From Amphiscolops sp. MND2022 (taxonomy: Eukaryota): a DNA stretch of 64,000 nucleotides. Positions 1 to 35,626 of the stretch are shown here, in pieces (the first letter of the stretch is position 1; each line of letters opens with the position of its first letter). The translations under genes and the position numbers were made by a program. The notes under the pieces are model-generated. The model saw only the letters and a program-made list of their open reading frames with translations, was not told the DNA's origin and ran no database searches. The stretch is from NCBI GenBank assembly GCA_964187785.1, contig OZ076409.1, forward strand, positions 72,480,001-72,544,000, read 5' to 3'.

Positions 1-976
1 GGGGGACATAGTTTCAGTCACCCCCCGTTACCCCTTGTGACCGGAAATGACCGTTATGTGGGTAAAATTAGGATTTTTGTACTTTTTGAAGGGCATTTAG
101 GTGCGGAAGGAGTGGTAATAGGTGCTTGGACACTATATGATGGAATGGAGGACGTGAGGCGAACATTCAGACATAACCGTTATGTTGACCCTAAAGTCCC
201 CCTGGTACCGTAAACGACCGGAAATGGTCAAATTTTGTGTCTATTGGGTACAAATGTTTGGTATTTTGTAAATAAAAGTATCTATTAGGTGTTTCGACGG
301 TCTGCAGTAGTGAACATAGTCATGAAACCTTGTCGGGGGGTAACGGTATATAGCACCGGAAGTCCAAAACGTTAGAGACGGGATAGGTTTTTTCGTTTTA
401 AAATGTCTTTCGGCGTACTTTTGTCAACTAATATGGAATATTTTTTAAAATTAAAGTTTTTCCATATAGTTTCAGAGACTCCCAAACCTCAAACAACATA
501 ACCGTTACCTTATGATAGCCTTTCAAGTTGGCCTGGTGTCAACTTGGAAGGGCTATCCTTCAAAAATCGTTGATCAAGTGTGTTTTTGGGTATGTTTGAA
601 TCATTTTAGAATCAATTAGAGCTTCAAGAAATGTTTGCCAACTACAAAAACTATGTCGTGATGATTCCGTTATTAGAGTAATGGTTAACAAAATATTGAT
701 TAAGTTGATTTTTTACATTTCAAAAGTGTCCTAAAAGCCAGAAAACCTCTTTACCAAACAAATGGTATTGATTGGATTGTATATAACATGTAATAAAAGT
801 TCAAATTGATTATTACGTTTTATTATGTAAGCTGAAACGTCATATTATAGTTTAATTAACGTCAACGCCACATACTTTACACCAACGCCCACCGTCTGTG
901 GGCATGCCGAGGCATGCCCTTCGACGACGTATACCAAATACATTTCATATCTACACCCACCCGCGGTAGCAGCTAG
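1..976 (+). mobile_element. Family B unit, 3' half (runs off window start)
   Basis: Matches the 3' half of B units (e.g. 26900-27873); GATAGCC hairpin 514-557; tail ending CTAG at 976. Confidence 0.8.
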
Positions 977-2520
977 GTGGGCGGGGGTAATTCCCCAACA
1001 AAAATTACGGCCGGCGGGTTGGGTCCTGCCGGACGTTCAAATAGCGCGAAGCATCTAGTAGAAAACAAGGAGTCCTGAAACAGCGATTTTAAAATTGAAC
1101 CGTTAGAATTTGGTTTTAGATTGCATGCGGCCCTAAAATTCCCATACGAATGGAAGTTCCTGCTGGCGTTAAGCGATTGAAATAATATATAAAAAGTTAT
1201 GGCCCATTTTTGGGTCACCGAGAAGGTCAAAATGAAGAAAATTTTAACTAAGTTGCTGATAACTCAAAATGTGTTAATTTTTGGACTTTGACTGTGAAAC
1301 AAGCTTGGAACCTTCATTTCGTGGCTGTGGCATTGCACTGAACACAAAAGATGTAAAGTTTTTACATTTTTCGAAAATTCGACATTTTTGATTTTTTTTC
1401 ACTACTATCAGTACACTATATGTCAAAAACACCTCTGAAAAAAATTATTATTTGCTTAAAATTGGAAACCTTGGTATCCATGGTTTCTGTCGGAACCTAC
1501 TCGCTGCCAAACACCCAACAGTTTGCATCCAATGTGAATTTAAAATTTTTTTCGAGGTCATAAGGGTTTCACAATGTTTTCATAACTTAGTATTAAACTA
1601 CAAACTGGTCATTTTCAACATAATATCTTTGTCGAGGCATGTCGGATATAGTCCTATTGCTCACGAACGGTCCTACTGGCAACGTAATAACCATTTATAG
1701 AAATGTAAAGTTATAAAAAAATTTTTTCACCCGGTCTTCAGTCATTTTTCAGTCATTCGGAACTTAACTTAGAAAAATTTCGACCAAAATATCCATTTTT
1801 TGTCAGGTCGAAAAATCAAATTAAGATTTTTAAGCAAAATTATTAACTCTGACGTAACCCATCGGGCCCATGATACTCAAAACAATGATTGACACTGGTA
1901 TCAATGGCTCCAATAACATATGAGTCGCGATAAGACGTTATTTTGAGCATTACGTCTCAATTGAGGTAAAGATCTCGCAAGCCAGCGATCACTGTGAAAT
2001 GTGATTTCATCAAAAATTTACTCATTTTTGTCAATCACTATGTGCACAGAATGCGTAGGGTGCGTTTCAGCACTATAATGAGGTTTTTGAAGGCATCGAG
2101 TTGCTCAAGGGGTGGTATGAGACATTTTTGTCCCATATACTACTGTATTTTCCAAAATTTTTAGCCCAATATCTGGAAATACAAACTTGACAAAATACTT
2201 TCAACTACTTTATTCAAAGGTTACAATATAGATAAACACTGTGGTTGATCAGAAACTTTCATCTCTTTCGTTTTCCGAAATATTTCCCTTCGCATGTGTT
2301 ACATTCGTAGCAGAAAAAAAAATCGAAACTGAAAAATATGCAATTTTGCTAAGATAGAATCGCAATGATTGTGCCTAAAAACTCTTTAAACACTTCTAAC
2401 GCAACCTTACGCACCCAAAATGATCGAAAATGCTATTCACAATGGTGACATGTGCTCTTTCTACGATCCTGGGTGGACAAGGTTTGCATATTTTTCAAGT
2501 ACCTGTCAGCTAAATCTTGT

Positions 2521-2564
2521 GATAGCCTTTTCAGTTGGCCTTGTGTCAACTTGGGAAGGCTATC
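2521..2564 (+). other. Conserved internal bulged inverted repeat GATAGCCTT..AGTTG-GCCT(T/G)GTGT-CAACTTGG.AAGGCTATC (representative copy)
   Basis: One copy per A and B unit and in G and the complete E, e.g. 514-557, 58427-58470, 63166-63209. Confidence 0.85.
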
Positions 2565-2856
2565 ACATCAAAAAACCATCAACAAAAATAATTTTTGTTT
2601 ATTGGATCTTACAGTCGATACTTTTTTTCGTGATTCTATACTACCGTTAGTATATTTGATCAGGTCACCTTACCATTGCATTCAGTCTTTGATAAAAACC
2701 TATGAACTCAAAGTCACATTTATATATTTTTTTGCCAAAAAAAACATCAAAAATATCTAAAATATATAAAATAGAGTCTTTAACTTTTTTACGTTTCAAG
2801 TTTCTGCCGTTATTAAGCCAATCAACTTCCTACAGCCACGCTCTCTGTCATACTGT

Positions 2857-2964
2857 ACAACGCCACATAGTGTTGCGACGTGCACGGTCTGTGGGCATGC
2901 CGAGGCATGCCCTTCGACGACGTATGCCGAATACCGCGGGCCTACGCCCGCGCTCCCCGGCTAG
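2857..2964 (+). other. Conserved 3' terminal module (representative copy): CAACGCCACA, 20-bp palindrome, GC hairpin, CTAG
   Basis: Palindrome 2893-2912; hairpin CGCGGGC-CTAC-GCCCGCG 2935-2952, 12 nt before the end; module present at all 26 CTAG junctions. Confidence 0.85.
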
Positions 2965-4955
2965 GTGGGCGGGGGTAATTCCCCAACAAAAAAATCGGCC
3001 GGCGGGTTGGGTCCTGCCGGCCGTCCAAAATCAAAATCCTCCTAGTAGAAAACGGCATGTCAAACGAGCTATTTTTTTATTTAACCATACGAATTTCACC
3101 ATTTTTTGCATGCGGCCCTGAAATGGCCATACGAGACGAAGTTCCTGCTGACGTTTTGCGATGTAAATGTTTTATAAAAAGTTATGGCGGATTTGTCATT
3201 CACCTAGAAGGGTAAAATGAGGAAAATTTTAACAAAGTCGCTGATAACTCAAAATGTGTTAATTTTTGGACTTTGACTGTGAAACAAGCTTGGAACCTTC
3301 ATTTCGTGGCTGGGGCATTGGACTGAACACAAAAGATGTAAAGTTTTTACGTTTTTTGAAAATTCGACATTTTTGAAATTTTTTTCACTACTATCAGTAC
3401 CCCATATGTCAAAAACACCTCAGAAAAAAATTTTTATTTGCTTTAAATTGGAAACCTTGGTATCCATGGTTTCTGTCGGAACCTACTCGCAGCCAAACAC
3501 TCAACAGTTTGCATCCAATGTGAAAATAAAAATTTTTTCGGGGTCATAAGCTTTTCACAAGGATTTCTCAACTTAGTATTAATTTACAAAATGGTCAATT
3601 TGAACACATTATTTTCATCGAAGCGTGTCAGATACCGCGCTAATGCTCACGAACGGGCCTACTGGCAACGTTGGAACAATTTATCGTAATAGAAAGTTTA
3701 AAAAAAATTTTTCACCCGGTCTTCAGTCATTTTTCACACATTCGGAACTTAACTTAGAAAAATTTCAACCGAAAAACCCATTTTTTGTCAGGTCGAAAAT
3801 TCAAAGTCAGCTTTTTAAGCAAAATTATCAACTCTGACGTAACTCATGGGGCCCATGATACTCAAAACAACGATTGGGGTTGGTACCAATGGCTCCAATA
3901 ACATATGAGTCGCGATAAGACGTTATTTTGAGCAATATGTCTCAATTGAGTTAAAGATCTCGCCAACCAGTGATCACTGTGAAATGTAAATTCATTAAAA
4001 ATTTACTCATTTTCGTCAATCACCATGTGCACAGAGTGCGTAGGGTGAGTTCCAGCACTATAATGAGGTTTTTGAAGGCATCGGGTTGCTCAAGGGGTGG
4101 TATGAGACATTTTTTTCCTATATACTACTGTAGTTTCCAAAAGTTTTAGCCCATTATCTGGAAAAACTAACTTGACAAAATACTTTCAATAACTTTATTC
4201 AAAGGTTACAATGTAGATGAACCCAGTGGTTGATCAAAAAATTTCATCTCTTTCGGTTTCCGAAATAATTCCCTTCGAATGTGTTACATTTGTAGCAGGA
4301 AAAAAACCGAAACTAAAAAATACGCAATTTTGCTGAGATAGAATCGCAATGGTTGCCCCTAAAATCTCTATAAATACTTCTAACGCGACCTTATGGACCC
4401 AAAATGATTGAAAATGCCATTCACAATGCTGACATGTGCTCTTTCGACGATCCTGGCTAGACAAGTTTTGCATATTTTTCAAGTACCTGTTAACTGAATT
4501 TTGTGATAGCCTTTTAAGTTGGCCTTGTGTCAACTTGGGAAGGCTATCACATCAAAAAACTTTCATCAAAAATACTTTTTGTTTATACAATAATGTAGTC
4601 GATAGTTATTTTCGTGATTTTACACTACCGTTAGTACCTTCCGCCAGGTCAGCTGACGATTGCATGCTGTCTTTGATAAAAACGTATGAACACCAAGAAA
4701 ATTTTGTTGTATTTTTGTTGAAGAAAAGTAATAATAAATAATAAAAATATAATTCTAACCTTAAACAACTATAAATTTGCTTAACCGTTATTAGTCCTAC
4801 CACCTATCATCAGCCTATGCCATGGCCCGGTGATTAGTAGTACAACGCCACATAAAGTAGCGACGCCCACAGTCTGTGGGCATGCCGAGGCATGCCCTTC
4901 GACGACGTATGGCAATTTTAGCGTAGCCCGCGGTCACTACCGCGGTAGCAGCTAG
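2965..4955 (+). mobile_element. Family A unit (1991 bp)
   Basis: Same head and tail grammar; near-identical to the next unit. Confidence 0.8.
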
Positions 4956-6947
4956 GTGGGCGGGGGTAATTCCCCAACAAAAAAATCGGCCGGCGGGTCG
5001 GGTCCTGCCGGCCGTCCAAAATCAAAATCCTCCTAGTAGAAAACGGCATGTCAAACGAGCTATTTTTTTATTTAACCATACGAATTTCACCATTTTTTGC
5101 ATGCGGCCCTGAAATGGCCATACGAGACGAAGTTCCTGCTGACGTTTTGCGATGTAAATGTTTTATATAAAGTTATGGCCGATTTGTCATTCACCTAGAA
5201 GGGTAAAATGAGGAAAATTTTAACAAAGTCGCTGATAACTCAAAATGTGTTAATTTTTGGACTTTGACTGTGAAACAAGCTTGGAACCTTCATTTCGTGG
5301 CTGTGGCATTGCATTGAACACAAAAGATGTAAGGTTTTTACATTTTTTGAAAATTCGACATTTTTGAAAATTTTTTCACTACTATCAGTACCCCATATGT
5401 CAAAAACACCTCAGAAGAAAATTTTTATTTGCTTTAAATTGAAAACCTTGGTAGCCATGGTTTCTGTCGGAACATACTCGCTGCCAAACACCCAACAGTT
5501 TGCATCCAGTGTGAATTTAAAAATTTTTTCGAGGTCTTAGGTGTTTCACAAGGATTTCTCAACTTAGTATCAAATTACAAATTGGTCATTTTAAACACAT
5601 TATTTTCATCGAAGCGTGTCAGATACCGCCCTAATGCTCACGAACGGGCCTACTGGCAACGTTGGAACAATTTATCGTAATAGAAAGTTTTAAAAAAAAT
5701 TTTTCGCCCGGTCTTCAGTCATTTTTCACACATTCGGAACTTAACTTAGAAAAATTTCAACCGAAAAACCCATTTTTTGTCAGGTCGAAAATTCAAAGTC
5801 AGCTTTTTAAGCAAAATTATCAACTCTGACGTAACCAGTGGGGCCCATGATACTCAAAACAACGATTGGGGTTGGTACCAATGGCTCCAATAACATATGA
5901 GTCGCGATAAGACGTTATTTTGAGCAATATGTCTCAATTGAGTTAAAGATCTCGCCAACCAGTGATCACTGTGAAATGTAAATTCAATAAAAATTTACTC
6001 ATTTTCGTCAATCACCATGTGCACAGAGTGCGTAGGGTGAGTTCCAGCACTATAATGAGGTTTTTGAAGGCATCGGGTTGCTCAAGGGGTGGTATGAGAC
6101 ATTTTTTTCCTATATACTACTGTATTTTCCAAAAGTTTTAGCCCATTATCTGGAAAAACTAACTTGACAAAATACTTTCAACAACTTTTTTCAAAGGTTA
6201 CAATGTAGATGAACCCAGTGGTTGATCAAAAATTTTCATCTCTTTCGGTTTCCGAAATAATTCCCTTCGAATGTGTTACATTTGTAGCAGGAAAAAAACC
6301 GAAACTAAAAAATACGCGATTTTGCTGAGATAGAATCGCAATGGTTGCCCCTAAAATCTCTATAAATACTTCTAACGCGACCTTATGGACCCAAAATGAT
6401 TGAAAATGCCATTCACAATGCTGACATGTGCTCTTTCGACGATCCTGGCTAGACAAGTTTTGCATATTTTTCAAGTACCTGTTAACTGAATTTTGTGATA
6501 GCCTTTTAAGTTGGCCTTGTGTCAACTTGGGAAGGCTATCACATCAAAAAACTTTCATCAAAAATACTTTTTGTTTATACAATAATGTAGTCGATAGTTA
6601 TTTTCGTGATTTTACACTACCGTTAGTACCTTCCGCCAGGTCAGCTGACGATTGCATGCTGTCTTTGATAAAAACGTATGAACACCAAGAAAATTTTGTT
6701 GTATTTTTGTTGAAGAAAAGTAATAATAAATAATAAAAATATAATTCTAACCTTAAACAACTATAAATTTGCTTAACCGTTATTAGTCCTACCACCTATC
6801 ATCAGCCTATGCCATGGCCCGGTGATTAGTAGTACAACGCCACATAAAGTAGCGACGCCCACAGTCTGTGGGCATGCCGAGGCATGCCCTTCGACGACGT
6901 ATGGCAATTTTAGCGTAGCCCGCGGTCACTACCGCGGTAGCAGCTAG
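4956..6947 (+). mobile_element. Family A unit (1992 bp)
   Basis: Near-identical to 2965-4955. Confidence 0.8.
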
Positions 6948-8932
6948 GTGGGCGGGGGTAATTCCCCAACAAAAATTACGGCCGGCGGGTTGGGTCCTGC
7001 CGGACGTCAAATAGCAAAGAATATCTAGTAGGAAACGGCGACACAGAATCGCGATTTTTAAATCTAACCACAATTTTTTGGACTTGGAGTGCATGCGGCC
7101 CTGAAATTCGCATACGAATCGAAGTTCCTGCTGACATTAAGCGATTGAAATAATATATAAAAAGTTATGGCCCATTTTTCACTCACAAAGAAGGGTAAAA
7201 TGAGGAAATTTTTAACAAAGTCGCTGATAACTCAAAATGTGTTAATTTTTGGACATTGACTGTGAAACAAGCTCGGAACCTTCATTTCGTGGCTGTGGCA
7301 TTGCACTGAACACAAAAGATGTAAAGTTTTTACATTTTTTGAAAATTCGAAATTTTTGAAATTTTTTTCACTACTATCAGTACCCCATATGTCAAAAACG
7401 CCTCAGAAAAAATTTTTTATTTGCTTTAAATTGGAAACCTTGGTATCCATGGTTTCTGTCGGATCCTACTCGCAGTCAAACACCCAACAGTTTGCATCCA
7501 ACGTGGAAATAAAAATTTTTTCGGGGTCATAAGCGTTTCACAAGGATTTCTCAACTTAGTTTCAATTTACAAATTGGTCACATTGAACACATTATTTTCA
7601 TCGAAGCGCGTCAGATACCGCCCTAAAGCTCACGAACGGTCCTACTGGCAACGTAGCAACCATTTATAGTAATGTAAAAGATTAAAAAAATTTTTTCACC
7701 CGGTCTTCAGTCATTTTTCAGTCATTCGGAACTTAACTTAGAAAAATTTCGACCAAAATACCCATTTTTTGTCAGGTCGAAAAATCAAATTCAGATTTTT
7801 AAGCAAAATTATTAACTCTGACGTAACTCATGGGGCCCATGATACTCAAAACAACGATTGACACTGGTATCAATGGCTCCAATAACATATGAGTCGCGAT
7901 CGGACGTTATTTTGAGCAATACGTCTCAATTGAGGTAAAGATCTCGCAAGCCAGCGATCACTGTCAAATGTGATTTCATCAAAAATTTACTCATTTTTGT
8001 CAATCATTATGTGCACAGAATGCGTAGGGTGCGTTTCAGCACTATAATGAGATTTTTCAATGCATCGAGTTGCTCAAGGGGTGGTACGAGACATTTTTGT
8101 CCCATATACTACTGTATTTTCCAAAATTTTTAGCCCAATATCTGGAAATACAAACTTGACAAAATACTTTCAACTACTTTATTCAAAAGTTACAATATAG
8201 ATGAACACTGTGGTTGATCAGAAACTTTCATCTCTTTCGTTTTCCGAAAAATTTTCCTTCGCATGTGTTATATTTGTATCAGAAAAAAAATCGAAACTGA
8301 AAAATACGCTATTTTGCTAATATAGAATCGCAATGATTGTGCCTAAAAACTCTTTAAACACTTCTAACGCGACCTTACGCACCCAAAATGATCGAAAATG
8401 CTATTCACAATGGTGACATGTGCTCTTTCAACGATCCTGGCTGGACAAGGTTTGCATATTTTTCAAGTACCTGTCAGCTGAATCTTGTGATAGCCTTTTA
8501 AGTTGGCCTTGTGTCAACTTGGGAAGGCTATCACATCAAACAACCATCAACAAAAATAATTTTTGTTTATTGGATATTACAGTTGATACCTTATTTCGTG
8601 ATTCTATACTACCGTTAGTATATTCCATGAGGTCACCTTACGATTGCATTCAGACTTTGATGAAAACCTATGAACTCAAAGTCACATTTATATTTTTTTT
8701 GCCCAAAAAAATCATCAAAAACATCTAATATATATAAAATTGAGTCTTTAACTTTTTTAGGTTTCAAGTTTCTGCCGTTATTAGGCCAATCAACTTCCTA
8801 CAGCCACGCTCTCTGTCATACTGTACAACGCCACATAGTGTTGCGACGTGCACGGTCAGTGGGCATGCCGAGGCATGCCCTTCGACGACGTATGCCGAAT
8901 ACCGCGGGCCTACGCCCGCGCTCCCCGGCTAG
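6948..8932 (+). mobile_element. Family A unit (1985 bp)
   Basis: Head variant GTCAAATAGCAAAGAATATC; CTAG end. Confidence 0.8.
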
Positions 8933-10917
8933 GTGGGCGGGGGTAATTCCCCAACAAAAATTACGGCCGGCGGGTTGGGTCCTGCCGGACGTCAAATAGC
9001 AAAGAATATCTAGTAGGAAACGGCGACACAGAATCGCGATTTTTAAATCTAACCACAATTTTTTGGACTTGGAGTGCATGCGGCCCTGAAATGCCCATAC
9101 GAATCGAAGTTCCTGCTGACGTTAAGCGATTGAAATAATATATAAAAAGTTATGGCCCATTTTTCACTCACAAAGAAGGGCAAAATGAGGAAATTTTTAA
9201 CAAAGTCGCTGATAACTCAAAATGTGTTAATTTTTGGACATTGACTGTGAAACAAGCTTGGAACCTTCATTTCGTGGCTGTGGCATTGCACTGAACACAA
9301 AAGATGTAAAGTTTTTACATTTTTTGAAAATTCGACTTTTTTGAAATTTTTTTCACTACTATCAGTACCCCATATGTCAAAAACGCCTCAGAAAAAATTT
9401 TTTATTTGCTTTAAATTGGAAACATTGGTATCCATGGTTTCTGTCGGATCCTACTCGCAGTCAAACACCCAACAGTTTGCATCCAATGTGGAAATAAAAA
9501 TTTTTTCGGGGTCATAAGGGTTTCACAAGGATTTCTCAACTTAGTTTCAATTTACAAATTGGTCACATTGAACACATTATTTTCATCGAAGCGCGTCAGA
9601 TACCGCCCTAAAGCTCACGAACGGTCCTACTGGCAACGTAGCAACCATTTATAGTAATATAAAAGATTTAAAAAAATTTTTCACCCGGTCTTCAGTCATT
9701 TTTCAGTCATTCGGAACTTAACTTAGAAAAATTTCGACCAAAATACCCATTTTTTGTCAGGTCGAAAAATCAAATTCAGATTTTTAAGCAAAATTATTAA
9801 CTCTGACGTAACTCATGGGGCCCATGATACTCAAAACAACGATTGACACTGGTATCAATGGCTCCAATAACATATGAGTCGCGATCGGACGTTATTTTGA
9901 GCAATACGTCTCAATTGAGGTAAAGATCTCGCAAGCCAGCGATCACTGTCAAATGTGATTTCATCAAAAATTTACTCATTTTTGTCAATCATTATGTGCA
10001 CAGAATGCGTAGGGTGCGTTTCAGCACTATAATGAGATTTTTGAATGCATCGAGTTGCTCAAGGGGTGGTACGAGACATTTTTGTCCCATATACTACTGT
10101 ATTTTCCAAAATTTTTAGCCCAATATCTGGAAATACAAACTTGACAAAATACTTTCAACTACTTTATTCAAAGGTTACAATATAGATGAACACTGTGGTT
10201 GATCAGAAACTTTCATCTCTTTCGTTTTCCGAAATATTTTCCTTCGCATGTGTTATATTTGTATCAGAAAAAAATCGAAACTGAAAAATACGCTATTTTG
10301 GTAATATAGAATCGAAATGATTGTGCCTAAAAACTCTTTAAACACTTCTAACGCGACCTTACGCACCCAAAATGATCGAAAATGCTAATCACAATGGTGA
10401 CATGTGCTCTTTCAACGATCCTGGCTGGACAAGGTTTGCATATTTTTCAAGTACCTGTCAGCTGAATCTTGTGATAGCCTTTTAAGTTGGCCTTGTGTCA
10501 ACTTAGGAAGGCTATCACATCAAACAACCATCAACAAAAATAATTTTTGTTTATTGGATATTACAGTTGATACCTCATTTCGTGATTCTATACTACCGTT
10601 AGTATATTCCATGAGGTCACCTTACGATTGCATTCAGACTTTGATGAAAACCTATGAACTCAAAGTCACATTTATATATTTTTTGCCCAAAAAAAATCAT
10701 CAAAAACATCAAATATATATAAAATTGAGTCTTTAACTTTTTTACGTTTCAAGTTTCTGCCGTTATTAGGCCAATCAACTTCCTACAGCCACGCTCTCTG
10801 TCATACTGTACAACGCCACATAGTGTTGCGACGTGCACAGTCTGTGGGCATGCCGAGGCATGCCCTTCGACGACGTATGCCGAATACCGCGGGCCTACGC
10901 CCGCGCTCCCCGGCTAG
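8933..10917 (+). mobile_element. Family A unit (1985 bp)
   Basis: Near-identical to 6948-8932. Confidence 0.8.
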
Positions 10918-12904
10918 GTGGGCGGGGGTAATTCCCCAACAAAAATTACGGCCGGCGGGTTGGGTCCTGCCGGACGTTCAAATAGCGCGAAGCATCTAGT
11001 AGAAAACAAGGAGTCCTGAAACAGCGATTTTAAAATTGAACCGTTAGAATTTGGTTTTAGATTGCATGCGGCCCTAAAATCCCCATACGAATGGAAGTTC
11101 CTGCTGGCGTTAAGCGATTGAAATAATATATAAAAAGTTATGGCCCATTTTTGGGTCACCGAGAAGGTCAAAATGAGGAAATTTTTAACAAAGTCGCTGA
11201 TAACTCAAAATGTGTTAATTTTTGGACATTGACTGTGAAACAAGCTTGGAACCTTCATTTCGTGGCTGTGGCATTGCACTGAACACAAAAGATGTAAAGT
11301 TTTTACATTTTTTGAAAATTCGACATTTTTGAAATTTTTTTCACTACTATCAGTACACTATATGTCAAAAACACCTCTGAAAAATTTTTTTATTTGCTTA
11401 AATTTAGAAACCTCGGTATCCATGGTTTCCGTCAGTACCTACTCGCTGCCAAACACTCAACAGTTTGCATCCAATGTGAAAATAAAAATTTTTTCGAGGT
11501 CTTAGGTGTTTCACAAGGATTTCTCAACTTAGTATCAATTTACAAATTGGTCATTTTGAACACATTATTTTCATCGAAGCGTGTCATATACCGCCCTAAT
11601 GCTCACGAACGGGCCTACTGGCAACGTTGGAACCATTTATAGTAATAAAAAGTATAAAAAAAATATTTTTCACCCCGTCTTCAGTCATTTTACACACTTT
11701 CGGAACTTAACTTAGAAAAATTTCAACCAAAAACCCATTTTTTGTCAAGTCGAAAATTCAAATTCAGCTTTTTATGCAAAATAAATAAATCTGACATAAC
11801 CAGTGGGGCCCATGAAACTCAAAACTACGATTGAGACTGGTATCAATGGCTCCAATAACCTATGAGTCGCGATAAGACGTTATTTTGAGCAAAACATCTC
11901 AATAGAGGTAAACATCTCGCAAGCCAGGGATCACTGTGAAATGTGATTTCATCAAAATTTTACTCGTTTTTGTAAATCACTATGTGCACAGAGTGCGTTG
12001 GGTTAATTACAGCACTATAATGAGGTTTTTGAAGGCATCAGGTTGCTCAAAGGGTGGTATGAGACATTTTTTTCCTATATACTACTGTATTTTCTAAAAC
12101 TTTTAGCCCATTATCTGAATAAACTAACTTGACAAAAAACTTTCAATTATTTTATTCAAAAGTTACAATATAGATGAACCCTGTCGTTGATCAGAAACTT
12201 TCATCTCTTTCGTTTTCCGAAATAATTTCCTTCATATGTGTTACATTTGTAACGGAAAAAAATCCAAAACTAAAAAGTACACTATTTTGCTAATATGGAA
12301 TCGCGATGATTGTGCCTATAAACTCTTTAAATACTTCTAACACGACCTTGCGGATACAAAATGATTGAAAATGCCATTCACAATGGTGACATGTGCTCTT
12401 TCTACGATCCTGACTGAACAAGTTTTGCATATTGTTCAAGTAACTGTCAATTGAATTTTGTGATAGCCTTTCAAGTTGGCCTTGCGTCAATTTTGGAAGG
12501 CTATCACATCAAAAAATTTTCATCAAAAATCTTTTTTTGTTTATTGGATCTTACAGTCGATACTTTTTTTCGTGATTCTATACTACCGTTAGTATATTTC
12601 ATCAGGTCACCTTACGATTGCATTCAGTCTTTGATAAAAACCTATGAACTCAAAGTCGCATTTATATACTTTTGGCCCAACAAAATTATCAAAAACATCT
12701 AAAATACCCAAAATAGAGTCTTTAACATTTTTACGTTTCAAGTTTTTTCCGTTATTAGGCCAATCAACGTCCTAGAGCCACATCCTGTCATACTGTACAA
12801 CGCCACATAGTGTTGCGACGTGCACGGTCTGTGGGCATGCCGAGGCATGCCCTTCGACGACGTATGCCGAATACCGCGGGCCTACGCCCGCGCTCCCCGG
12901 CTAG
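10918..12904 (+). mobile_element. Family A unit (1987 bp)
   Basis: Head as in the 977 unit, diverged body, CTAG end. Confidence 0.8.
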
Positions 12905-13670
12905 GTGGTTGGGGCGTTATTCCCCACGAAGTTCGCGGCCGCGGGAGAAGGGCCCCGCGGACCGCCCATCCAATGCAAAAATATACACTCTAAACAGCAC
13001 CATTATAAACACGATCTCGAAAATGAACCGTAGGATTGTCTTGAAATTTTGCATACGGATAGAAGAGAAAATTCTAAGAACTTTTTCCTGCTGGCACTTT
13101 TCCGAAAAAAATGTCCTTCATGGGTTTTTTTGGGTTTTTTTGGTTTTTTCTCATCTTTCTCATCTTTGATTAATCAATCACCGAATCAAAGGCCATTTTC
13201 AGCATGAAGGAATGCCCGTAGCAGCAAAGTGCACTTTTACAAAAATCATCAACGGTCAACGGTCTTTCGAACGGTCCAAAAAAATTTCCCCCCGGGGGCA
13301 TCCAAAGTGCCGAAAAGTGCCAAAATATTTTTTTGGTCTGAATCATTTTGATGAAATTGTTGATTTGAGCAGCAGGAACGGTCCGCACGGTCTCAAATTG
13401 TAAGGGCAAAAATTGTCAGCGTTCAATGGCAGTTCCAAAAATATAAGTCAGTCACCTGTAGGAGTTGTAACAAAAAATCGATTTTTGGGTAATATGGCAT
13501 GTTGAGTGGTTGGATGAGAAATACCCGTAACATGTTGAGTTTGATTTGATGCAGCAGTGGTTGCAGCTGCAGCAAACGTGAAAATGATAAAAGGGCTGGG
13601 ATATATCACATGCACAAACCAATGCTGCCATGGGGCTTTCCTTGTGCCGCAAAATGCCTCAATGCGATCA
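12905..13670 (+). mobile_element. Family E element, 5' part (cut by assembly gap)
   Basis: First ~490 bp nearly identical to 59456-59945; starts GTGGTTGGGGCG directly after CTAG. Confidence 0.75.
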
Positions 13671-13870
13671 NNNNNNNNNNNNNNNNNNNNNNNNNNNNNN
13701 NNNNNNNNNNNNNNNNNNNNNNNNNNNNNNNNNNNNNNNNNNNNNNNNNNNNNNNNNNNNNNNNNNNNNNNNNNNNNNNNNNNNNNNNNNNNNNNNNNNN
13801 NNNNNNNNNNNNNNNNNNNNNNNNNNNNNNNNNNNNNNNNNNNNNNNNNNNNNNNNNNNNNNNNNNNNNN
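13671..13870. other. Assembly gap (200 N)
   Basis: Run of 200 n; a round number, so the true size is unknown. Confidence 0.99.
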
Positions 13871-14025
13871 GATGGTACAATCCGCGCGCCTACATACCTA
13901 CGGCGTCTTGTCACTACAACGCCACATAGGGAAACAACGCCCATAGTCCGTAGGCATGCCGAGGCATGCCTTTCGACGACGCGCGCCAAATCTATGCGCG
14001 CCCGCACTTGTGCGGTAGCTGCTAG
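13871..14025 (+). mobile_element. Orphan 3' end of an element (tail similar to family F)
   Basis: Core tail with AGGCATGCC-GA-GGCATGCCT and CCGCA-CTTG-TGCGG hairpin, CTAG at 14022-14025; closest to the tail at 48487-48598. Confidence 0.75.
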
Positions 14026-16008
14026 GTGGGCGGGGGTAATTCCCCAACAAAAAAATCGGCCGGCGGGTTGGGTCCTGCCGGACGTCAAATAGTGTGAAAC
14101 ATCCAGTAGGAAACGGCGACATTTATCAGCGATTTTAAAATTGAACCGTTAGAATTTGGACTTGGAGTGCATGCGGGCCCAAAATGCCCATACGAATCGA
14201 AGTTCCTGCTGACGTTAAGCGATAAAAACACTTTATAAAAAGTTATGGCCCATTTTACGTTCACTTAGAGAGGTAAAATGAGGAAAATTTTAACAAAGTT
14301 GCTGATAACTCAAAATACATTAATTTTTGGACTTTGACTGTGAAACAAGCTTGGAACCTTCATTTCGTGGCTGTGGCATTGCACTGAACACAAAAGATGT
14401 AAAGTTTTCACATTTTTTGAAAATTCGACATTTTTGAATTTTTTTCACTACTATCAGTACACTATATGTCAAAAACACCTCAGAAAAAAATTTTTATTTG
14501 CTTAAATTTAGAAACCTCGGTATCCATGGTTTCCGTCAGTACCTACTCGCAGCCAAACACTCAACAAATTGCATCCAATGTGAAAATAAAATTTTTTTCG
14601 GGGTCATAAGCGTTTCACAAGGATTTCTCAACTTAGTATTAATTTACAAAATGGTCATTTTGAACACAATATTTTCATCGAGGCTTGTCGGCTATAGCCT
14701 TAATGTTCTAGAACGGTCCCACTGGCAACGTAGGAACCATTTATAGTAATAGAAAGTTTTAAAAATATTTTTTCATCCGGTCTTCAGTCATTTTTCAGTC
14801 ATTCGGAACTTAACTTAGAAAAATTTCGACCAAAATAGCCATTTTTTGTCAGGTCGAAAATTCAAATTCAGATTTTTAAGCAAAATTATTAACTCTGACG
14901 TAACCCATGGGGCCCATGATACTGAAAACAACAATTGACACTGGTATCAATGGCTCCAATAACATATGAGTCGCGATAAGACGTTATTTTGAGCAATACG
15001 TCTCAATTGAGGTAAAGATCTCGCAAGCCAGCGATCACTGTGAAAGGTGATTTCATCAAAAATTTACTCATTTTTGTCAATCACTATGTGCACAGAATGC
15101 GTAGGGTGCGTTTCAGCACTATAATGAGGTATTTGAAAGCATCGAGTTGCTCAAGGGGTGGTATGAGACCTTTTTGTCCCATATACTTCTGTATTTTCCA
15201 AAATTTTTAGCCCAATATCTGGAAATACAAACATGACAAAATACTTTCAACTACTTTATTCAAAGGTTACAATATAGATGAACACTGTGGTTGATCAGAA
15301 ACTTTCATCTCTTTCGTTTTCCGAAATATTTCCCTTCGCATGTGTTACATTTGTAGCAGAAAAAAAATCGATACAGAAAAATACGCTATTTTGCTAATAT
15401 AGAATCGCAATGATTGTGCCTAAAAACTCTTTAAACACTTCTAACGCGACCTTACGCACCCAAAAAGATCGAAAAGGCTATTCACAATGGTGACTTGTGC
15501 TCTTTCAACGATCCTGACTGAACAATTTTCGCAAATTATTCAAGTACCTGTTAACTGAATCTCGTGATAGCCTTTTAAGTTGGCCTTGTGTCAACTTGGG
15601 AAGGCTATCACATCAAAAAATTTTCAACAAAAATACTTTTTGTTTATTGAAAATGACAGTCGATATATAATTTCGTGATTCTATGCTACCGTTAGTACCT
15701 TCCATTAAGTCACCTGACGATTGCATTCAGTCTTTGATAAATACCTATGAACTCGAAGTCATATTTATAACTTTTTTGCTAAAAATAAACATCAAAATTA
15801 TCCAAATTTATTAAAATTGAGTCTTTATTGTCTTTGTTTTTCTTTTTCTACTGTTATTAGGCCCATCAACTTCCTACAGCCACGCTCTCTGTCATACTGT
15901 ACAACGCCACATAGTGTTGCGACGTGCACGGTCTGTGGGCATGCCGAGGCATGCCCTTCGACGACGTATGCCGAATACCGCGGGCCTACGCCCGCGCTCC
16001 CCGGCTAG
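14026..16008 (+). mobile_element. Family A unit (1983 bp)
   Basis: Head variant GTCAAATAGTGTGAAACATCC; CTAG end. Confidence 0.8.
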
Positions 16009-17982
16009 GTGCGGGGGGGTAACCCCTACAAAGATATTGGAGGATTCGGGTAGGGTCCTGAATCCGAGTTCAGTGCTGCCAGCTATCGTTAGGGATTTGA
16101 GAAAATTTTGCCGATCTCGTGATCTAACCGTAGGATTTTAAAGTTGGAGCGGCCCCCACCAGATTTTCCAAAGTTATTCGCCCCCCACCGGGTTCCAGCG
16201 TGATTGAAATATTTTGACGGGGTACACGGGCGACCGTTAGGGGTCATTTTGGGGGTAAAATTTATATCCGGTCGCATAACTTTTTTCCTGTTGGTTTAAA
16301 ACTTTGGGACCCTGCTAAAAGTTTCTTGACCGTGTTGCAGTGGCTCCGGAGGTCCAAACCAAATTTTTCTATCTTGAAGCTATCTCCAAGTACCCCCCCG
16401 CCCAAACCGTTATTTTTCCGGAAACGCAGGTTTTTGACCCGGAAGGAGTCGTCTGAGCGCGGGGTCGTTAGGTGATGTATTGGGGACGGCCTTGAGACGA
16501 AGCGGGGGACATGTAGTTTGCCGACCCCTGTTTACCCCCCGGACGGGAAATGACCGTTATTTGAGCGGGAAAAATGCCCCCCTCCACGTTTTACCGCTAT
16601 TTCCGGTGTGAAGGAGTGGGAGTAGCGCGTCGGGTGTTATATAACAAAAGTAGGTTTAGACAAGGACCTATCGGAAACATGTGGTTTTGGACCCCCTGGA
16701 CCAACCCGTTAGCGGGAAATGGGGCTTCCGCCTCCTTTTTTTACTGCTAAAACCGTAAAATGGGCATTGAGGGGTAAATATCTCGTGAACGCGTGGAGCT
16801 ACGGTGTCCATCACTACTACAAGGTTTCATACCCATGATATGGTGCCTTCAGGGGGGCAAACAGATTTCCGCTATCTATCGCCGTTACCGACTTGGCCCC
16901 CCAGCCTAACCGCTATGTGACCGGAAATGTCACTTTTTGAGCCCAAAGGGTCGGTCCCAGCCGGGGAACGTTAGGTAACTTATTGTAGTGCTAATTGAGA
17001 CGAGTTGGGAGATTTATTTTCAGTCACCCCCCGTTACCCCTTAGGACCGGAAATGACCGTTATGTGGGTAAATTTGCTTTTTTTGTACTTTTTGGAGGGC
17101 ATTTAGATGCGGAAGGAGTGGTAATAGGTGCTTGGACACTATATGATGATAGGGAGGACGTGAGGCGAGCTTTCGGAATTAACCGTTATGCTGACTCTAA
17201 AGTCCCCCTGGTACCGGAAGTGACCCGTAATGGTCAAATGTCGTGTTTTTAGGGTACAAATGTTTGGTGTTTTATGGATAACAGTACCTATTAGGTGTTT
17301 CGACGGTCTGCAGTCGTGAACATAGTCATGAAACCTTGTGGGGGGTAACGGTATATAGCACCGGAAGTCCAAACCGTTGGAGACTGGATAAGTTTTTTGG
17401 TTTTAAAATGTCTTTCGGCCTACTTTTGTTGACTATTATGGACTATTTTTGAAAAATAAAGTTTTTCCATATAGTTTCAGAGACTCCGAAACCTCAACCA
17501 ACATAACCGTTACCTTATGATAGCCTTTCAAGTTGGCCTGGTGTCAACTTGGAAGGGCTATCCTTCAAAAATCATTAATCAAGTGTGTTTTTGAGTTTGT
17601 TTGTATTACTTTAGAATCAATTAGAGCTTCAAGAAAAGATTGCCAACGACAAAAACTATGTCGTGATGATTCCGTTATTGGAATAATAGTTAACAAAATA
17701 TTGATAAAGTTGATTTTTTACATTTTAAATGTGTTCTAAATGCCAGAAAACCTCTTTACCAAACAAATGGAATTGATTGAATTGTATATAGAAGCTAATA
17801 AAAGTTCAAATTGAATATTACGTTTCATTATGGAAGCTGAAACGTCATATTATAGGTTCATTAGTGTCAACGCCACATACTTTACATCAACGCCCACCGT
17901 CCGTAGGCATGCCGAGGCATGCCTTTCGACGACGTATACCAAATTCCACCCACACAACACCCCCGAGCGCGGTAGCAGCTAG
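16009..17982 (+). mobile_element. Family B unit (1974 bp)
   Basis: GTGCGGGGGGG head; GC-richer body not visibly alignable to A; shares the GATAGCC hairpin and tail. Confidence 0.8.
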
Positions 17983-19967
17983 GTGGGCGGGGGTAATTCC
18001 CCTTCAAAAAATTCGGCCGGCGGGTTGGGTCCTGCCGGACGTCAAATAGTGTGAAACATCCAGTAGGAAACGGCGACATAAATCAGCGATTTTAAAATTT
18101 AACCGTTAGAATTCGGACTTGGAGTGCATGCGGCCCCAAAATGCCCATACGAATCGAAGTTCCTGCTGACGTTAAGCGATAAAAACATTTTATAAAAAGT
18201 TATGGCCCATTTTACGTTCACCTATAAGGGTAAAATGAGGAAAATTTTTACAAAGTCGCTGATAACTCAAAATACATTAATTTTTGGACTTTGACTGTGA
18301 AACAAGCTTAGAACCTTCATTTCGTGGCTGTGGCATTGCACTGAACACAAAAGATGTAAAGTTTTTACATTTTTTGAAATTTCGACATTTTTGATTTTTT
18401 TTCACTACTATCAGTACACTATATGTCAAAAACACCTCTGAAAAAAATTTTTATTTGCTTAAAATTGGAAACCTTGGTATCCATGGTTTCTGTCGGAACC
18501 TACTAGCTGCCAAACACCCAACAGTTTGCATCCAATGTGAAATTAAAATTTTTTTCGAGGTCTTAGGTGTTTCACAAGGATTTCTCAACTTAGATTCAAT
18601 TTACAAATTGGTCATATTGAACACAATATTTTCATCGAGGCTTGTCGGCTATAACCTTAATGTTCTAGAACGGTCCCACTGGCAACGTAGGAACCATTTA
18701 TAGTGATAGAAAGTTTTAAAAAAAAATTTTCATCCGGTCTTCGGTCATTTTTCAGTCATTCGGAACTTAACTTAGAAAAATTTCGATCAAAATACCCAAT
18801 TTTGTCAGGTCGAAAATTCAAATTCAGATTTTTAAGCAAAATTATTAACTCTGACGTAACCCATGGGGCCCATGATACTCAAAACAACGATTGACACTGG
18901 TATCAATGGCTCCAATAACATATGACTCGCGATAAGACGTTATTTTGAGCAATACGTCTCAATTGAGGTAAAGATCTCGCAAACCAGCGATCACTGTGAA
19001 ATGTGATTTCATCAAAAATTTACCCATTTTTGTCAATCACTATGTGCACAGAATGCGTAGGGTGCGTTTCAGCAATATAAGGAGGTTTTTGAAGGCATCG
19101 AGTTGCTCAAGGGGTGGTATGAGACATTTTCGTCCCATGTACTACTGTATATTGCAAATTTTTTAGCCCATTATCTGAAAAACTAACTTGACAAAATACT
19201 TTCAACTACTTTATTCAAAGGTTACAATGTAGATGAACCCAGTGGTTGATCAGAAACTTTCATCTCTTTCGTTTTCCGAAATAATTCCCTTCGAATGTGT
19301 TACATTTGTAGCAGGAAAAAAACCGAAACTAAAAAATACGCAATTTTGCTGAGATAGAATCGCAACGGTTGCGCCTAAAATCTCTTTAAATACTTCTAAC
19401 GCAACTTTACGGACCCAAATTGATTGAAAATGCCATTCACAATGCTGACATGTGCTCTTTCTACGATCCTGGCTGGACAAGTTTTGCATTTTTTTCAAGT
19501 ACCTGTTAACTGAACATTGTGATAGCCTTTCAAGTTGGCCTTGTGTCAACTTGGGAAGGCTGTCACATCAAAAAACTGTCAACAAAAATACCACTCGTTT
19601 ATAGGAAATTGCTGTCGATGCCTAATTTTGTGATTCGATCATGTCGTGAGTTCCTTCCATCAGGTCAGCTAACAATTGGATTCAGTGTTTGATAAGAACC
19701 TATGATTTTTTTGACAATTTTCGTTTTTTCTTGCAAAGAAAAAGTACAAATAAACAATATAAAACAAAATTGTAACCTTTAAGAAGTTTAACTTTACCTT
19801 TTTTTAACCGTTACCATCACTTTCGACCCTGTACGACCTCGTAATGTCCTTATTACAACGCCACATAGTGTAGCGACGCCCACAGTCTGTGGGCATGCCG
19901 AGGCATGCCCTTCGACGACGTATGCCAACTACTTTTTATATCTACACCCGATTGCGGTAGCGGCTAG
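17983..19967 (+). mobile_element. Family A unit (1985 bp)
   Basis: A head and body; terminal segment resembles B-type tails. Confidence 0.8.
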
Positions 19968-21954
19968 GTGGGCGGGGGTAATTCCCCAACAAAAATTACG
20001 GCCGGCGGGTTGGGTCCTGCCGGACGTCAAATAGCAAAGAATATCTAGTAGGAAACGGCGACACAGAATCGCGATTTTTAAATCTAACCACAATTTTTTG
20101 GACTTGGAGTGCATGCGGCCCTGAAATGCCCATACGAATCGAAGTTCCTGCTGACGTTAAGCGATTGAAATAATATATAAAAAGTTATGGCCCATTTTTC
20201 ACTCACAAAGAAGGGTAAAATGAGGAAATTTTTAACAAAGTCGCTGATAACTCAAAATGTGTTAATTTTTGGACTTTGACTGTGAAACAAGCTCGGAACC
20301 TTCATTTCGTGGCTGTGGCATTGCACTGAACACAAAAGATGTAAAGTTTTTACATTTTTTGAAAATTCGAAATTTTTGAAATTTTTTTCACTACTATCAG
20401 GACCCCATATGTCAAAAACGCCTCAGAAAAAATTTTTTATTTGCTTTAAATTGGAAACCTTGGTATCCATGGTTTCTGTCGGATCCTACTCGCAGTCAAA
20501 CACCCAACAGTTTGCATCCAATGTGGAAATAAAAATTTTTTCGGGGTCATAAGCGTTTCACAAGGATTTCTCAACTTAGTTTCAATTTACAAATTGGTCA
20601 CATTGAACACATTATTTTCATCGAAGCGCGTCAGATACCGCCCTAAAGCTCACGAACGGTCCTACTGGCAACGTAGCAACCATTTATAGTAATATAAAAG
20701 ATTAAAAAATTTTTTTCACCCGGTCTTCAGTCATTTTTCAGTCATTCGGAACTTAACTTAGAAAAATTTCGACCAAAATACCCATTTTTTGTCAGGTCGA
20801 AAAATCAAATTCAGATTTTTAAGCAAAATTATTAACTCTGACGTAACTCATGGGGCCCATGATACTCAAAACAACGATTGACACTGGTATCAATGGCTCC
20901 AATAACATATGAGTCGCGATCGGACGTTATTTTGAGCAATACGTCTCAATTGAGGTAAAGATCTCGCAAGCCAGCGATCACTCTCAAATGTGATTTCATC
21001 AAAAATTTACTCACTTTTGTCAATCATTATGTGCACAGAATGCGTAGGGTGCGTTTCAGCACTATAATGAGATTTTTGAATGCATCGAGTTGCTCAAGGG
21101 GTGGTACGAGACATTTTTGTCCCATATACTACTGTATTTTCCAAAATTTTTAGCCCAATATCTGGAAATACAAACTTGACAAAATACTTTCAACTACTTT
21201 ATTCAAAGGTTACAATATAGATGAACACTGTGGTTGATCAGAAACTTTCATCTCTTTCGTTTTCCGAAATATTTTCCTTCGCATGTGTTATATTTGTATC
21301 ACAAAAAAAAATCGAAACTGAAAAATACGCTATTTTGGTAATATAGAATCGCAATGATTGTGCCTAAAAACTCTTTAAACACTTCTAACGCGACCTTACG
21401 CACCCAAAATGATCGAAAATGCTATTCACAATGGTGACATGTGCTCTTTCAACAATCCTGGCTGGACAAGGTTTGCATATTTTTCAAGTACCTGTCAGCT
21501 GAATCTTGTGATAGCCTTTTCAGTTGGCCTTGTGTCAACTTGGGAAGGCTATCACATCAAAAAACCATCAACAAAAATAATTTTTGTTTATTGGATCTTA
21601 CAGTCGATACTTTTTTTCGTGATTCTATACTACCGTTAGTATATTTCATCAGGTCACCTTACGATTGCATTCAGTCTTTGATAAAAACCTATGAACTCAA
21701 AGTCACATTTATATATTTTTTTGCCAGAAAATAACATCAAAAATATCTAAAATATATAAAATAGAGTCTTTAACATTTTTACGTTTCAAGTTTTTGCCGT
21801 TATTAGGCCAATCAACGTCCTAGAGCCACATCCTGCCACATACTGTACAACGCCACATAGTGTTGCGACGTGCACAGTCTGTGGGCATGCCGAGGCATGC
21901 CCTTCGACGACGTATGCCGAATACCGCGGGCCTACGCCCGCGCTCCCCGGCTAG
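19968..21954 (+). mobile_element. Family A unit (1987 bp)
   Basis: Close to the 6948/8933 units. Confidence 0.8.
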
Positions 21955-23930
21955 GTGCGGGGGGGAAACCCCAACAAAATTTTTGGAGGATTCGGGTAGG
22001 GTCCTGAATCCGAGTTCAGTGCTGCCAGCTTTCGTTAAGAAAATTTGGATAGGATTCGGGATCTCGTGATCTAACCATAGGATTTTAAAGTTGGAGCGGC
22101 CCCCACCAGATTTTCCGAAAATTAGCGCCCCCCACCGGGTTCCAGCGTGATTGAAATATTTTGACGGGGTACACGGGCGACCGTTAGGGGGTCATTTTAG
22201 GGGTAAAATTCATATTGGGCCACATAACTTTTTTTCTGTTGATTTAAAACTTTGGGACCCTGCTAAAAGTTTCTTGACCGTGTTGCAGGGGCCCCGAAGG
22301 TCCAAACCAAATTTTTCTATCTTGAAGCTATCTCCAAGTACCCCCCCGCCCAAAACGTTATTTTTCCGGAAACGCAGGTTTTAGACCCGGAAGGAGTCGT
22401 CTGAGCGCGGGGTCGTTAGGTGATGTTTTGGGGACGGCCTTGAGACGAAGTGGGGGACATGTAGTTTGCCGACCCCAGTTTACCCCCCGGACGGGAAGTG
22501 ACCGTTATTTGAGCGGGGAAAATGCCCCCCTCCACGTTTTACCGCTATTTCCGGTGTGAAGGAGTGGGAGTAGCGCGTCGGGTGTTATATAACAAAAGTA
22601 GGTTTAGACAAGGACCTATCGGAAACATGTGGTTTGGGACCCCCTGGACCAACCCGTTAGCGGGAAATGGGGCTTCCGCCTCCTTTTTTTTACGGTTAAA
22701 AACGGAAAATGGGCATTGAGGGGTAAATATCTCGTGAACGCGTGGAGCAATCGTGTCCATCACTACTACAAGTTTTCATACCCATGATATGGTGCCTTCA
22801 GGGGGGCAAACAGATTTCCGCTATCTATCACCGTTACGGACTTGGCCCCCCAGCCCAACCGCTATGTGACCGGAAATGTCACTTTTTGAGCCCAAAGGGT
22901 CGGTCCCAGTCGGGGAACGTTAGGTAACTTATTGTAGTACTCAATGAGACGAGTTGGGGGATATAGTTTCAGTCACCCCCCGTTACCCCTTGGGACCGGA
23001 AATGACCGTTATGTGGGTAAATTTGCATTTTTTGTACTTTTTGAAGGGCATTTAGATGCGGAAGGAGTGGTAATAGGTGCTTGGACACTATATGAGGTAA
23101 GGGAGGACGTGAGGCGAGCATTCGGAAATAACCGTTATGTTGACCCTAAAGTCTCCCTGGTACCGGAAGTGACCGGAAATTGTCAAATTTTGTGTTTTTA
23201 GGGTACAAATGTTCGGTGTTTTATGGATTAAAGTACAGGTTAGGTGTTTTCACGGTCTGCAGTAGTGAACATAGTCATGAAACCTTGTGGGGGGTAACGG
23301 TATATAGCACCGGAAGTCCAAACCGTTGGAGACAGGATAAGTTTTTTGGTTTTAAAATGTCTTTCGGCCTACTTTTGTCGACTATTATGGACTATTTTTG
23401 GAAAATAAAGTTTTTCCAAATAGTTTCAGAGACTCCGAAACCTCAACCAACATAACCGTTACCTTATGATAGCCTTTCAAGTTGGCCTGGTGTCAACTTG
23501 GAAGGGCTATCCTTCAAAAATCATTAATCAAGTGTGTTTTTGAGTATGTTTGTATTACTTTAGAATCAATTAGAGCTTCAAGAAAAGATTGCCAACAACA
23601 AAAACTATGTCGTGATGATTCCGTTATTGGAATAATAGTTAACAAAATATTGATAAAGTTGAGTTTTTACATTTTAAATGTGTTCTAAATGCCAAAAAAC
23701 CTCTTTACCAAACAAATGGTATTGATTGAATTGTATATAGCAGCTAATAAAAGTTAAATTGAATATTACGTTTCATTATGCAAGCTGAAACGTCAAATTA
23801 TAGTTTAATTAACGTCAACGCCACATACTTTACATCAACGCCCACCGTCCGTAGGCATGCCGAGGCATGCCTTTCGACGACGTATACCAAATTCCACCCA
23901 CACAACACTCCCGAGCGCGTTAGCAGCTAG
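21955..23930 (+). mobile_element. Family B unit (1976 bp)
   Basis: B head, body and tail. Confidence 0.8.
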
Positions 23931-34040: not shown

Positions 34041-35410
34041 AAAAGCCAACTATTTTGACCAAAATCCTAAAAATCATACCATTTCCTAAAAATTTTCAAA
34101 TGCACCCCATTTGACGTATAAGATAAGCACAGAAAACTATCATATACCGATCAACTCTACTCCTATTGTAGATTATTAGAATTTTGTTAAGAATGAATTT
34201 TGATGAATATTAAAAAAATTTTGAACCCTCCAAAAATGGGCCAAAATTACACGAAAAAATTGACCTTAAAATACCAAAATGTCAAAAAATCATCAAAACC
34301 CAGGCTTCTTGGGGTTCTATCAACTCCGCGTGGTCCACAGAGTATGCTAAAACAGGTTTTACCCGTTTTTGAGCAATATGTGAAAAAGCCGACATTTTTG
34401 GGAAAGAAAAACATACCATTTCCTAAAAAAATTCAAATGCACGTCATTTGCCGTATTAGAATAGCACAGAAAACTATCACATACCAATCAACTCTACTTT
34501 TATTGCAGATGAACAGAATTTTGTTTAGAATAAATTTTACCGGATAATAAAAAAATTTGAATCCTTCAAAAATGGGCCAAAAATACACGAAAAAATGGAC
34601 CTTAAAAATTTAAAATGTCAAAAAATCATCAAAACAACAGCTTCTTGGGGTTCTATCAACTCCACGAGGTCCACAGAGTATGCTAAAACAGGTTTTACCC
34701 GTTTTTGAGCAATATGTGAAAAAGCCGACATTTTTGGGAAAGAAAAACATACCATTTCCTAAAAAAATTCAAATGCACGCCATTTGCCGTATGAAAATAG
34801 CACAGAAAACTATCACATACCAATCAACTCTACTTTCATTGCAGATGAACAGAATTTTGTTTAGAATAAACTTTACCGGATAATAAAAAAATTTGATTCC
34901 TTCTAAAATGGGCCAAAATTACACGAAAAAATGGACCTTAAAATTTTAAAATGTCAAAAAATCATCAAAACCACGGCTTCTTGGGGTTCTATCAACTCCA
35001 CGTGGTCCACAGAGTATGCTTAACCCGGTTTTACCCATCTTTGAGCAAAATGTGAAAATACCGACATTTTTGGAAAAGAAAAACATGCCATTTTCTAATA
35101 AATTTCAAATGCACGCCATTTGCTGTATGAGAATTACACAGAAAGCTGTCACATACCGATCAACTCTACTTCCATTGTAGATTATCAGAAGTTTGTTTAG
35201 AATAAATTTTGAAGGATAATAAAAAAATTTGAATCCATCAAAAATGGGCCAAAATTACACGAAAAAATTGACCTTAAAATATCAAAATGTCAAAAAATCA
35301 TCAAAACCACAATTTCTTGGCGTTCTATCAACTCCATATGATACCAAACCAGGTACTGCCAATCGTTTGAGTTATAATAAAAAAACGTCTTTTTTGGCAA
35401 GAATTCCATA
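34041..35410 (+). repeat. Internal tandem repeat, ~4 x 336-337 bp
   Basis: AT(A/G)CCATTT(C/T)CTAA recurs at 34076, 34413, 34749, 35085. Confidence 0.9.
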
Positions 35411-35626
35411 CCATAAATAATAATCATGTTCCATATAAGAAGCGAATCATTTCAGATATATACCCTGTTCATTTTTTTAATATTACCGATTATTAATTTA
35501 ATAGATGTTTTGAATGTGAGCTTCCTAAAAGGTTCAGGTGTGATGATACGTAAATAGAACCTTAGTTTCATCGAAATCTCAATTGAATATGTCCAATCTT
35601 AACCATCAGATAACAAGAAACACTTA

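Follow-up and report, generated by a model that had tools for sequence, protein, structure and literature searches.

A conserved 5' hairpin, probably a folded start signal, heads the units of a megabase array of apparently undescribed Helitron-like elements in Amphiscolops

The window, as we call the whole 64,000-nt stretch analysed here (C1:72.48-72.54 Mb of the 1.07-Gb genome of Amphiscolops sp. MND2022), was found to consist of non-coding units, 1.3-4.9 kb each, arranged head to tail; it has 27 heads of the GTG type, every one on the + strand, and no open reading frame (ORF) longer than 181 aa. At 973..980 (+) lies the tail-head junction CTAG↓GTGG, of consensus CTNG↓DT, where the arrow marks a putative nick between 976 and 977. 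It opens a complete non-autonomous unit of family A (977..2964, +; GTG...CTAG, 1,988 bp) without a long ORF. The head of this unit (977..1040, +), a candidate origin or left terminal sequence (LTS), comprises a small first hairpin, GGGG-TAATT-CCCC (984..996, +), and a main stem (1009..1034, +), the covarying outer arms of which surround a core, GGG-TTGGGT-CCT (1016..1027, +; from head position 40), that is conserved in sequence and includes a G1016.T1027 wobble. The hairpin with a GA loop and a conserved 10-mer at 900..929 (+) belongs to the tail of the preceding unit; such a tail hairpin with its 10-mer lay ≤100 nt from the unit end in 109 of 134 units, and exact copies across the genome number 4,732.

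Heads of other families, all on the + strand, were located at 16009..16072 (family B, core 16048-16059; other family B heads start at 21955, 23931, 25902, 27874 and 29867), 12905..12969 (family E with an 8-nt loop, core 12943-12956), 47327..47405 (family F with a long spacer, core 47381-47392), and 54557..54620 (family G with a 3' bulge, core 54596-54607). The family G unit ends at CTGG 59455 and is followed by a second family E head (59456..59520, +), which the initial annotation had not cited and whose unit terminates 190 nt past the window. The stems which that annotation had drawn for families A, B, E, F, and G were all found in place, and the spacing of 33-34 nt between junction and stem that it had given for A, B, E, and G was reproduced by measurement (34, 33, 34, and 33, respectively; 49 in F), as was the G.T common to A and B, at which E, F, and G carry G-C.

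Several further features were observed in the window. A 200-N gap at 13671-13870 sits between the family E head (12905) and an F-like tail, and because the gap links these two the unit from 12905 is probably an assembly join. An imperfect inverted repeat of about 60 bp (509-566, 2516-2574, 58422-58492, 63165-63209) occurs in families A, B, G, and E, which are not otherwise related, and lies several hundred bases 5' of the tail. Inside the units of 4.7-4.9 kb (31838-36600, 40575-45338, 54557-64000) there are tandem repeats with a length of about 340-350 bp. The tail hairpin of family E is a compensated variant at 63527-63548, 664 nt from the unit end vs the usual distance of about 70. Elsewhere, a family B head (L168, near 1500) is interrupted where an insertion has entered an internal CTTG.

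As judged by sampling, the window (1..64000, +) is included in an array of about 6 Mb (G000, C1 about 70.45-76.5 Mb), in which mixed families follow one another head to tail in one orientation; smaller arrays and single copies occur outside it. Unit ends were CTAG in 130 and CTGG in 4 of the 134 units, and some tails carry CTTG or CTCG. With the head still serving as an origin, the array might have grown chiefly via rolling-circle read-through or unequal crossover of blocks, a possible though unlikely course of events. Adjacent units were more often near-identical (97%; 10 vs 4.4 of 98 in within-region shuffles) or members of one family (40 vs 29.7 shuffled) in a comparison that merged a few units with long-loop heads, and this excess likeness between neighbours means that duplication or read-through contributes to the array as well. 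The same reading is favoured by the tail-head pairs (182 vs 216 shuffled), by the 24 of 134 units missing the tail hairpin core, and by precedent, since tandem and self-inserted Helitrons are known (PMC5148889, PMC13342296), the tandem ones from bat, fly, rice, and maize according to the available part of PMC5148889. Against it as the chief route, just 4 of 40 near-identical unit pairs were followed by the same next unit, one tail type with 17 copies led to 12 different heads, and the breakpoints fell exactly at CTAG↓GTG, with CTAG directly 5' of 51/51 sampled array heads. Units moved mostly singly.

A search of the genome with the Helitron Rep family returned weak matches in ORFs of 1,900-2,545 aa on the + strand within the array. 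The units bearing these ORFs, autonomous and 12-14.5 kb long, are ordinary array units in that they start with the same GTG head and finish with a CTRG tail; their ORFs are sense to GTG-CTAG. Pfam identified Rep and PIF1 in 6/6 of the array-type ORFs and a C-terminal GIY-YIG domain in 4/6. The HUH and tyrosine motifs were present, and a Rep with HUH and catalytic Tyr thus precedes a Pif1-family helicase in one protein, the arrangement that defines the Helitron-like superfamily. In unrooted Rep and helicase trees with few references, the HLE1 and DUF6570-bearing HLE2 ones being taken from this genome only, the array proteins and their database relatives were placed apart from both HLE1 and HLE2 (support 1.0 and 0.999). 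DUF6570, seen in the HLE2 references of the genome, was found in none of the clade proteins (0/6, 0/7, and 0/19). A profile of the transposase retrieved 649 protein clusters at E≤1e-30, the best 150 of them at E≤3e-123; among the sampled relatives GIY-YIG was found in 13/19, and one relative is annotated from Styela clava. No relatives were retrieved from viral and prokaryote collections with two patterns each (peptide patterns for prokaryote genomes), and no match above 0.78 came from an Atlas search with the 950 aa at the N-terminus. The autonomous elements contain a second ORF of 335-382 aa past the transposase (L064:5525-6670, L066:5687-6691) without a Pfam match, and some clade members (P0015, P0095) have an N-terminal OTU domain.

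The initial annotation had described the head as conserved in structure, not in sequence. We assessed conservation in a set of heads defined as whatever comes after the tail motif, a choice that avoids the circularity of selection by the core. CTRG↓GTG was present at 174 of the 206 tail contexts, and the heads formed 43 clusters at 80%, from which a host flank and a truncated head were dropped to leave 41 families. A GGG-loop-CCY element with the loop ending in GGG-N (core consensus GGG-(T/G)AGGG-N-CCY) occurred in 40/41 families, starting at head position 37-45 in 37 of the 40, and the alignment of these 40 rows had 5 invariant columns. A second set of 55 clusters had been picked by presence of the core and is therefore unable to show core conservation, which the 41-family set can. 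One array head family, starting with GTGGAGG (L169:202, L308:7770), lacks the core and has a stem of about 15 bp at about the same place. The outer arms, in turn, were dissimilar between families yet paired with their cognates (-7.54 vs -5.31±0.22 kcal/mol when permuted), and no arm-swap permutation out of 100,000 was as good as the cognate arms across the 41 families. The outer stem alone is thus conserved as structure only, while the inner stem and the loop retain their sequence; the earlier description stands for the former and fails for the latter. The small first hairpin, which that description had included and which is present in A, is optional across families, reaching -2 kcal/mol in 30 of the 55 clusters.

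The expected covariation was borne out in part. Besides the arm swap, a covariation score computed on the plain alignment exceeded its controls (0.289 vs 0.169 shuffled and 0.114-0.193 slid), but on two further measures the alignment was no better than its shuffles (498 and 499 of 500), and RNAalifold on the plain alignment retained only 4 pairs, probably because 3' bulges misalign; in the 55-cluster set, bulges lay predominantly on the 3' arm (59 vs 15). The stem energies by themselves were modest, with a mean z of -1.65 and only 20/41 families below -2.

As for the strand-specific fold proposed at the outset, the top strand was more stable than the bottom in 33 of 41 families and less stable in 3, but the top-bottom difference (-1.04) was not beyond that obtained when the same G-rich bases were shuffled (-0.69; p 0.17, n=55). 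A strand preference was instead evident in particular pairs. The tandem GA/GA would form sheared pairs. Under symmetric scoring of the 55 clusters, the inner stem contained 16 G.T and 0 A.C and the outer stem 33 G.T vs 8 A.C (49 vs 22 in swapped controls), and a tandem GA/GA closed the stem in 29/55 clusters vs 13.0±2.1 swapped, the 3' GA accompanying a 5' GA in 32/32 cases and occurring in 7/23 without one; since the head families are related, these counts, like the covariation, do not represent independent events. It is thus the G.T and tandem GA/GA pairs that speak for the top strand, whereas the bulk folding energy lies within what the G-rich composition gives. RNA typically contains G.U and tandem GA pairs, and RNA energies also favoured the top strand (32 vs 8 of 41), as would suit a hairpin acting in transcripts of the elements, either as a 5' leader or as a small RNA. 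Such a role is nevertheless quite improbable: the position of the hairpin is tied to the DNA junction, the hairpin is retained in non-coding units, the head structure has no match in Rfam, and the partner enzyme is by Pfam of the DNA-nicking HUH type.

The target was examined at copies outside tail-head junctions. After one tail type the next base was G 1,439 times and a different one 35 times, with 2 chance matches in the control, and in the 35 free tails the second base after the tail was T in 33. Host CTNG preceded 8 of 10 independent full-length copies, the free 5' flank of the other 2 not being CTNG. Comparison with paralogous empty sites revealed precise insertion without target-site duplication at four of them: L196 vs L194 showed CTAG↓AT with no gain or loss, L199 vs L216 and L111 showed CTTG↓AT likewise, and L211 vs L193 contained a pair of sites separated by 17 nt, CTAG↓TT and CTAG↓AT, both precise. 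The consensus CTNG↓DT is the same reading as that of the tail-head junction. In both L211 and L223, CTNG sites that neighbour each other at 16-17 nt carry insertions, which suggests an attraction to an existing element. Two insertions (L196, L194, L216) lie within a repeat that by eye resembles tRNA-derived sequence. A family of about 710 bp (L214, L215, L222) has a fully compensated CAGG/CCTG stem; one of its loci (L214/L215) comes after ACAA with an 8-nt flank duplication, and another begins with GCG. Most of the 35 free tails (L191-L224), a set selected on tails, are 5'-truncated or isolated 3' pieces.

Such tail-bearing, headless copies, together with the palindromic nature of CTAG and the terminator hairpin of canonical Helitrons, might be taken to mean that the bottom strand moves and that the head hairpin is a terminator before CAC-CTAG. 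This reversed polarity is very unlikely, because the tetranucleotide found 5' of the head depends on the host and is still there at empty sites, whereas tails retain their own CTAG, CTGG, or CTTG, the ORFs are sense to GTG-CTAG, and the G.T and GA/GA pairs form on the top strand. No more probable is a guide of the IS608 kind, in which the loop (T/G)AG would pair with the target CTN and steer site choice. TAG is complementary to CTA, and the loop stands at a fixed distance from the nick, but CTYG preceded 15/78 GA-loop and 18/116 TA-loop heads, i.e. without coupling, and the abundant family A has TT, TC, or TA at that place in the loop; such a guide was not supported for the loop, the part examined in this respect. 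The ends of IS200/IS605 elements (IS608) and integron attC sites are strand-specific folded DNAs with unpaired bases near the recombination site. The initial annotation had likened the head to both, a less fitting analogy, as the loop base is not coupled to the target base and the enzyme is a large Rep-helicase rather than a Y1 TnpA or a tyrosine integrase. Its broader proposal of a folded top-strand recognition signal gains from the HUH Rep-helicase encoded in units that share the head.

A head model built from the heads of this genome alone was run on 48 metagenome loci encoding relatives, in most of which the upstream DNA is too short, and it matched 5 of them, 4 upstream of and sense to the ORF and 1 downstream on the other strand. 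The transposases of the 4 loci are only 21-28% identical to the array proteins, and the number of strict motifs expected upstream was 0.02. One of these loci, L278, has CTGG↓GTGG plus the G.T, with a shorter spacer. No match was obtained in 29 control loci (18 HLE1/HLE2 loci and 11 flanking stretches). The motif was absent upstream at three loci with about 5 kb or more (L269, L287, and L288, of which L287/L288 are one locus). A loose loop pattern was not enriched (6 seen, 10.4 shuffled), the enrichment being limited to the strict motif and its position. Some metagenome contigs break at or beside the head or CTNG↓GTG (L253:1, L257:1, L296 end, L261:10622, L288:19752), and L288 has a long-loop variant of the hairpin downstream of the ORF. 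That the core works as a motif bound in double-stranded form, or as a G-quadruplex element, and that the stem is incidental is the least probable reading of all, for although the core is G-rich and conserved in sequence and the stem z-scores are modest, the arms covary among families and in distant hosts, and a G-quadruplex as the general form of the head was rejected with four G3 tracts in only 10/55 heads.

As far as the available parts of the cited papers describe the known systems, the array elements share features with each of several groups. Like HLE1, they encode Rep (HUH, tyrosine) and a Pif1 helicase in one ORF (PMC5876387, PMC11417382), cause no target duplication, and have non-autonomous derivatives. 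Their 3' end is CTRR-like and often comes after a hairpin, but 24 of the 134 units lack the hairpin core and some tails read CTTG or CTCG. Unlike HLE1, which starts with TC and inserts at A↓T (PMC11417382), they begin with GTG and insert at CTNG↓DT, and they have a conserved 5' hairpin, a dispensable tail hairpin, a C-terminal GIY-YIG, and a transposase that falls in a separate clade relative to HLE1 references from this genome only; the HLE1 element Helraiser matches the array transposase in the helicase alone (E 1e-5). Helraiser cannot do without its LTS and is cleaved solely at the plus-strand junction (PMC5876387), and by analogy the head is likely an origin of this kind. A 5' hairpin is present also in HLE2 (Helitron2, Helentron, FoHeli), with compensatory changes in Helitron2 (PMC3627910), whereas that of the array differs in position and form, being set back 30-40 nt from the end and having a G-rich loop that is conserved. 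Self-insertion, too, is reported for HLE2. The asymmetric terminal inverted repeats of HLE2 were absent from 134 units (longest match 5.1 vs 5.5 nt swapped). The array clade lies outside the HLE2 clade and lacks DUF6570, its insertions occur at CTNG↓DT and not at T↓T (PMC11417382) or T↓C, and its GIY-YIG is clade-wide, while in HLE2 one Sphagnum family, HelenSM92, has captured such a domain (PMC11417382).

With respect to ends and target layout, the array elements resemble IS91, in which CTTG is the target next to oriIS and terIS is cleaved at CTCG, without duplication (PMC13181058). Both leave a tetranucleotide at the origin end and have a like tetranucleotide at the terminator, with no duplication and with subterminal palindromes in the origin (PMC13181058, PMC5714925). 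Unlike the array elements, IS91 is bacterial, short, and devoid of a helicase. CTNG↓DT is an IS91-like rule, unlike the Helitron A↓T or T↓T, and IS91 oriIS or the Helitron LTS provides a better analogy for the head than IS608 or attC. The third Helitron clade of Paramecium is also outside HLE1/HLE2 and forms orientation-biased clusters, put down to sequence-specific targeting, but its description sets it apart by CCAA ends and a telomeric-repeat target, and GIY-YIG was not mentioned in the text and supplements searched (PMC13085455). The ends reported here were not found in the available parts of PMC11934779, PMC13404089, PMC6431247, PMC5714925, and bioRxiv 2026.09.17.752431, and the literature searched, with Repbase and most subscription journals lying outside it, held no account of GTG/CTNG ends, the head hairpin, or the GIY-YIG clade. 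The array elements are apparently an undescribed group within the Helitron-like elements, of which the unclassified HELIANO clusters and Repbase may include members.

Taken together, the head is quite probably the conserved 5' end of divergent Helitron-like rolling-circle transposons and, as judged from sequence, a folded top-strand DNA start signal for the Rep-helicase, which would bind at the CTNG↓GTG nick. In the reaction we envisage, Rep would nick after CTNG and attach to the G of GTG, the helicase would peel off the top strand, and the core hairpin, about 39 nt in, would fold on the displaced strand, where the enzyme would hold it; nicking once more, at the CTNG of the tail, would then close a circle, to be joined to a target carrying the same hexamer. 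Tandem tail-head junctions resemble circle junctions, and existing ones would be preferred as landing sites, GIY-YIG perhaps pre-nicking the target. Mixed arrays of a single orientation would arise because a tail-head junction presents a target match beside a bound hairpin, with some local duplication in addition to targeted insertion. We lean slightly towards a still broader reading, namely that these elements represent an undescribed major Rep-Pif1-GIY-YIG clade, widespread in eukaryotes and nicking at CTNG in an IS91-like manner, in which one ancient folded-DNA origin maintained across hosts would double as a landing pad onto which dozens of families home to form megabase domains.

What the enzyme reads at the start of a Helitron is poorly defined, the ends being known by two or four letters, and here about 40 families together with distant relatives outline a specific structure for the start, placed a constant distance from the nick. 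Annotation tools that seek TC...CTRR or inverted repeats would overlook such ends despite the 649 protein clusters, and the likeness of CTNG↓DT to the bacterial IS91 bears on the origin of Helitrons. A junction-specific single-strand integrase, if true, could serve as an insertion tool, and self-targeting, if true, would be a safe-harbour strategy behind the domain of about 6 Mb.
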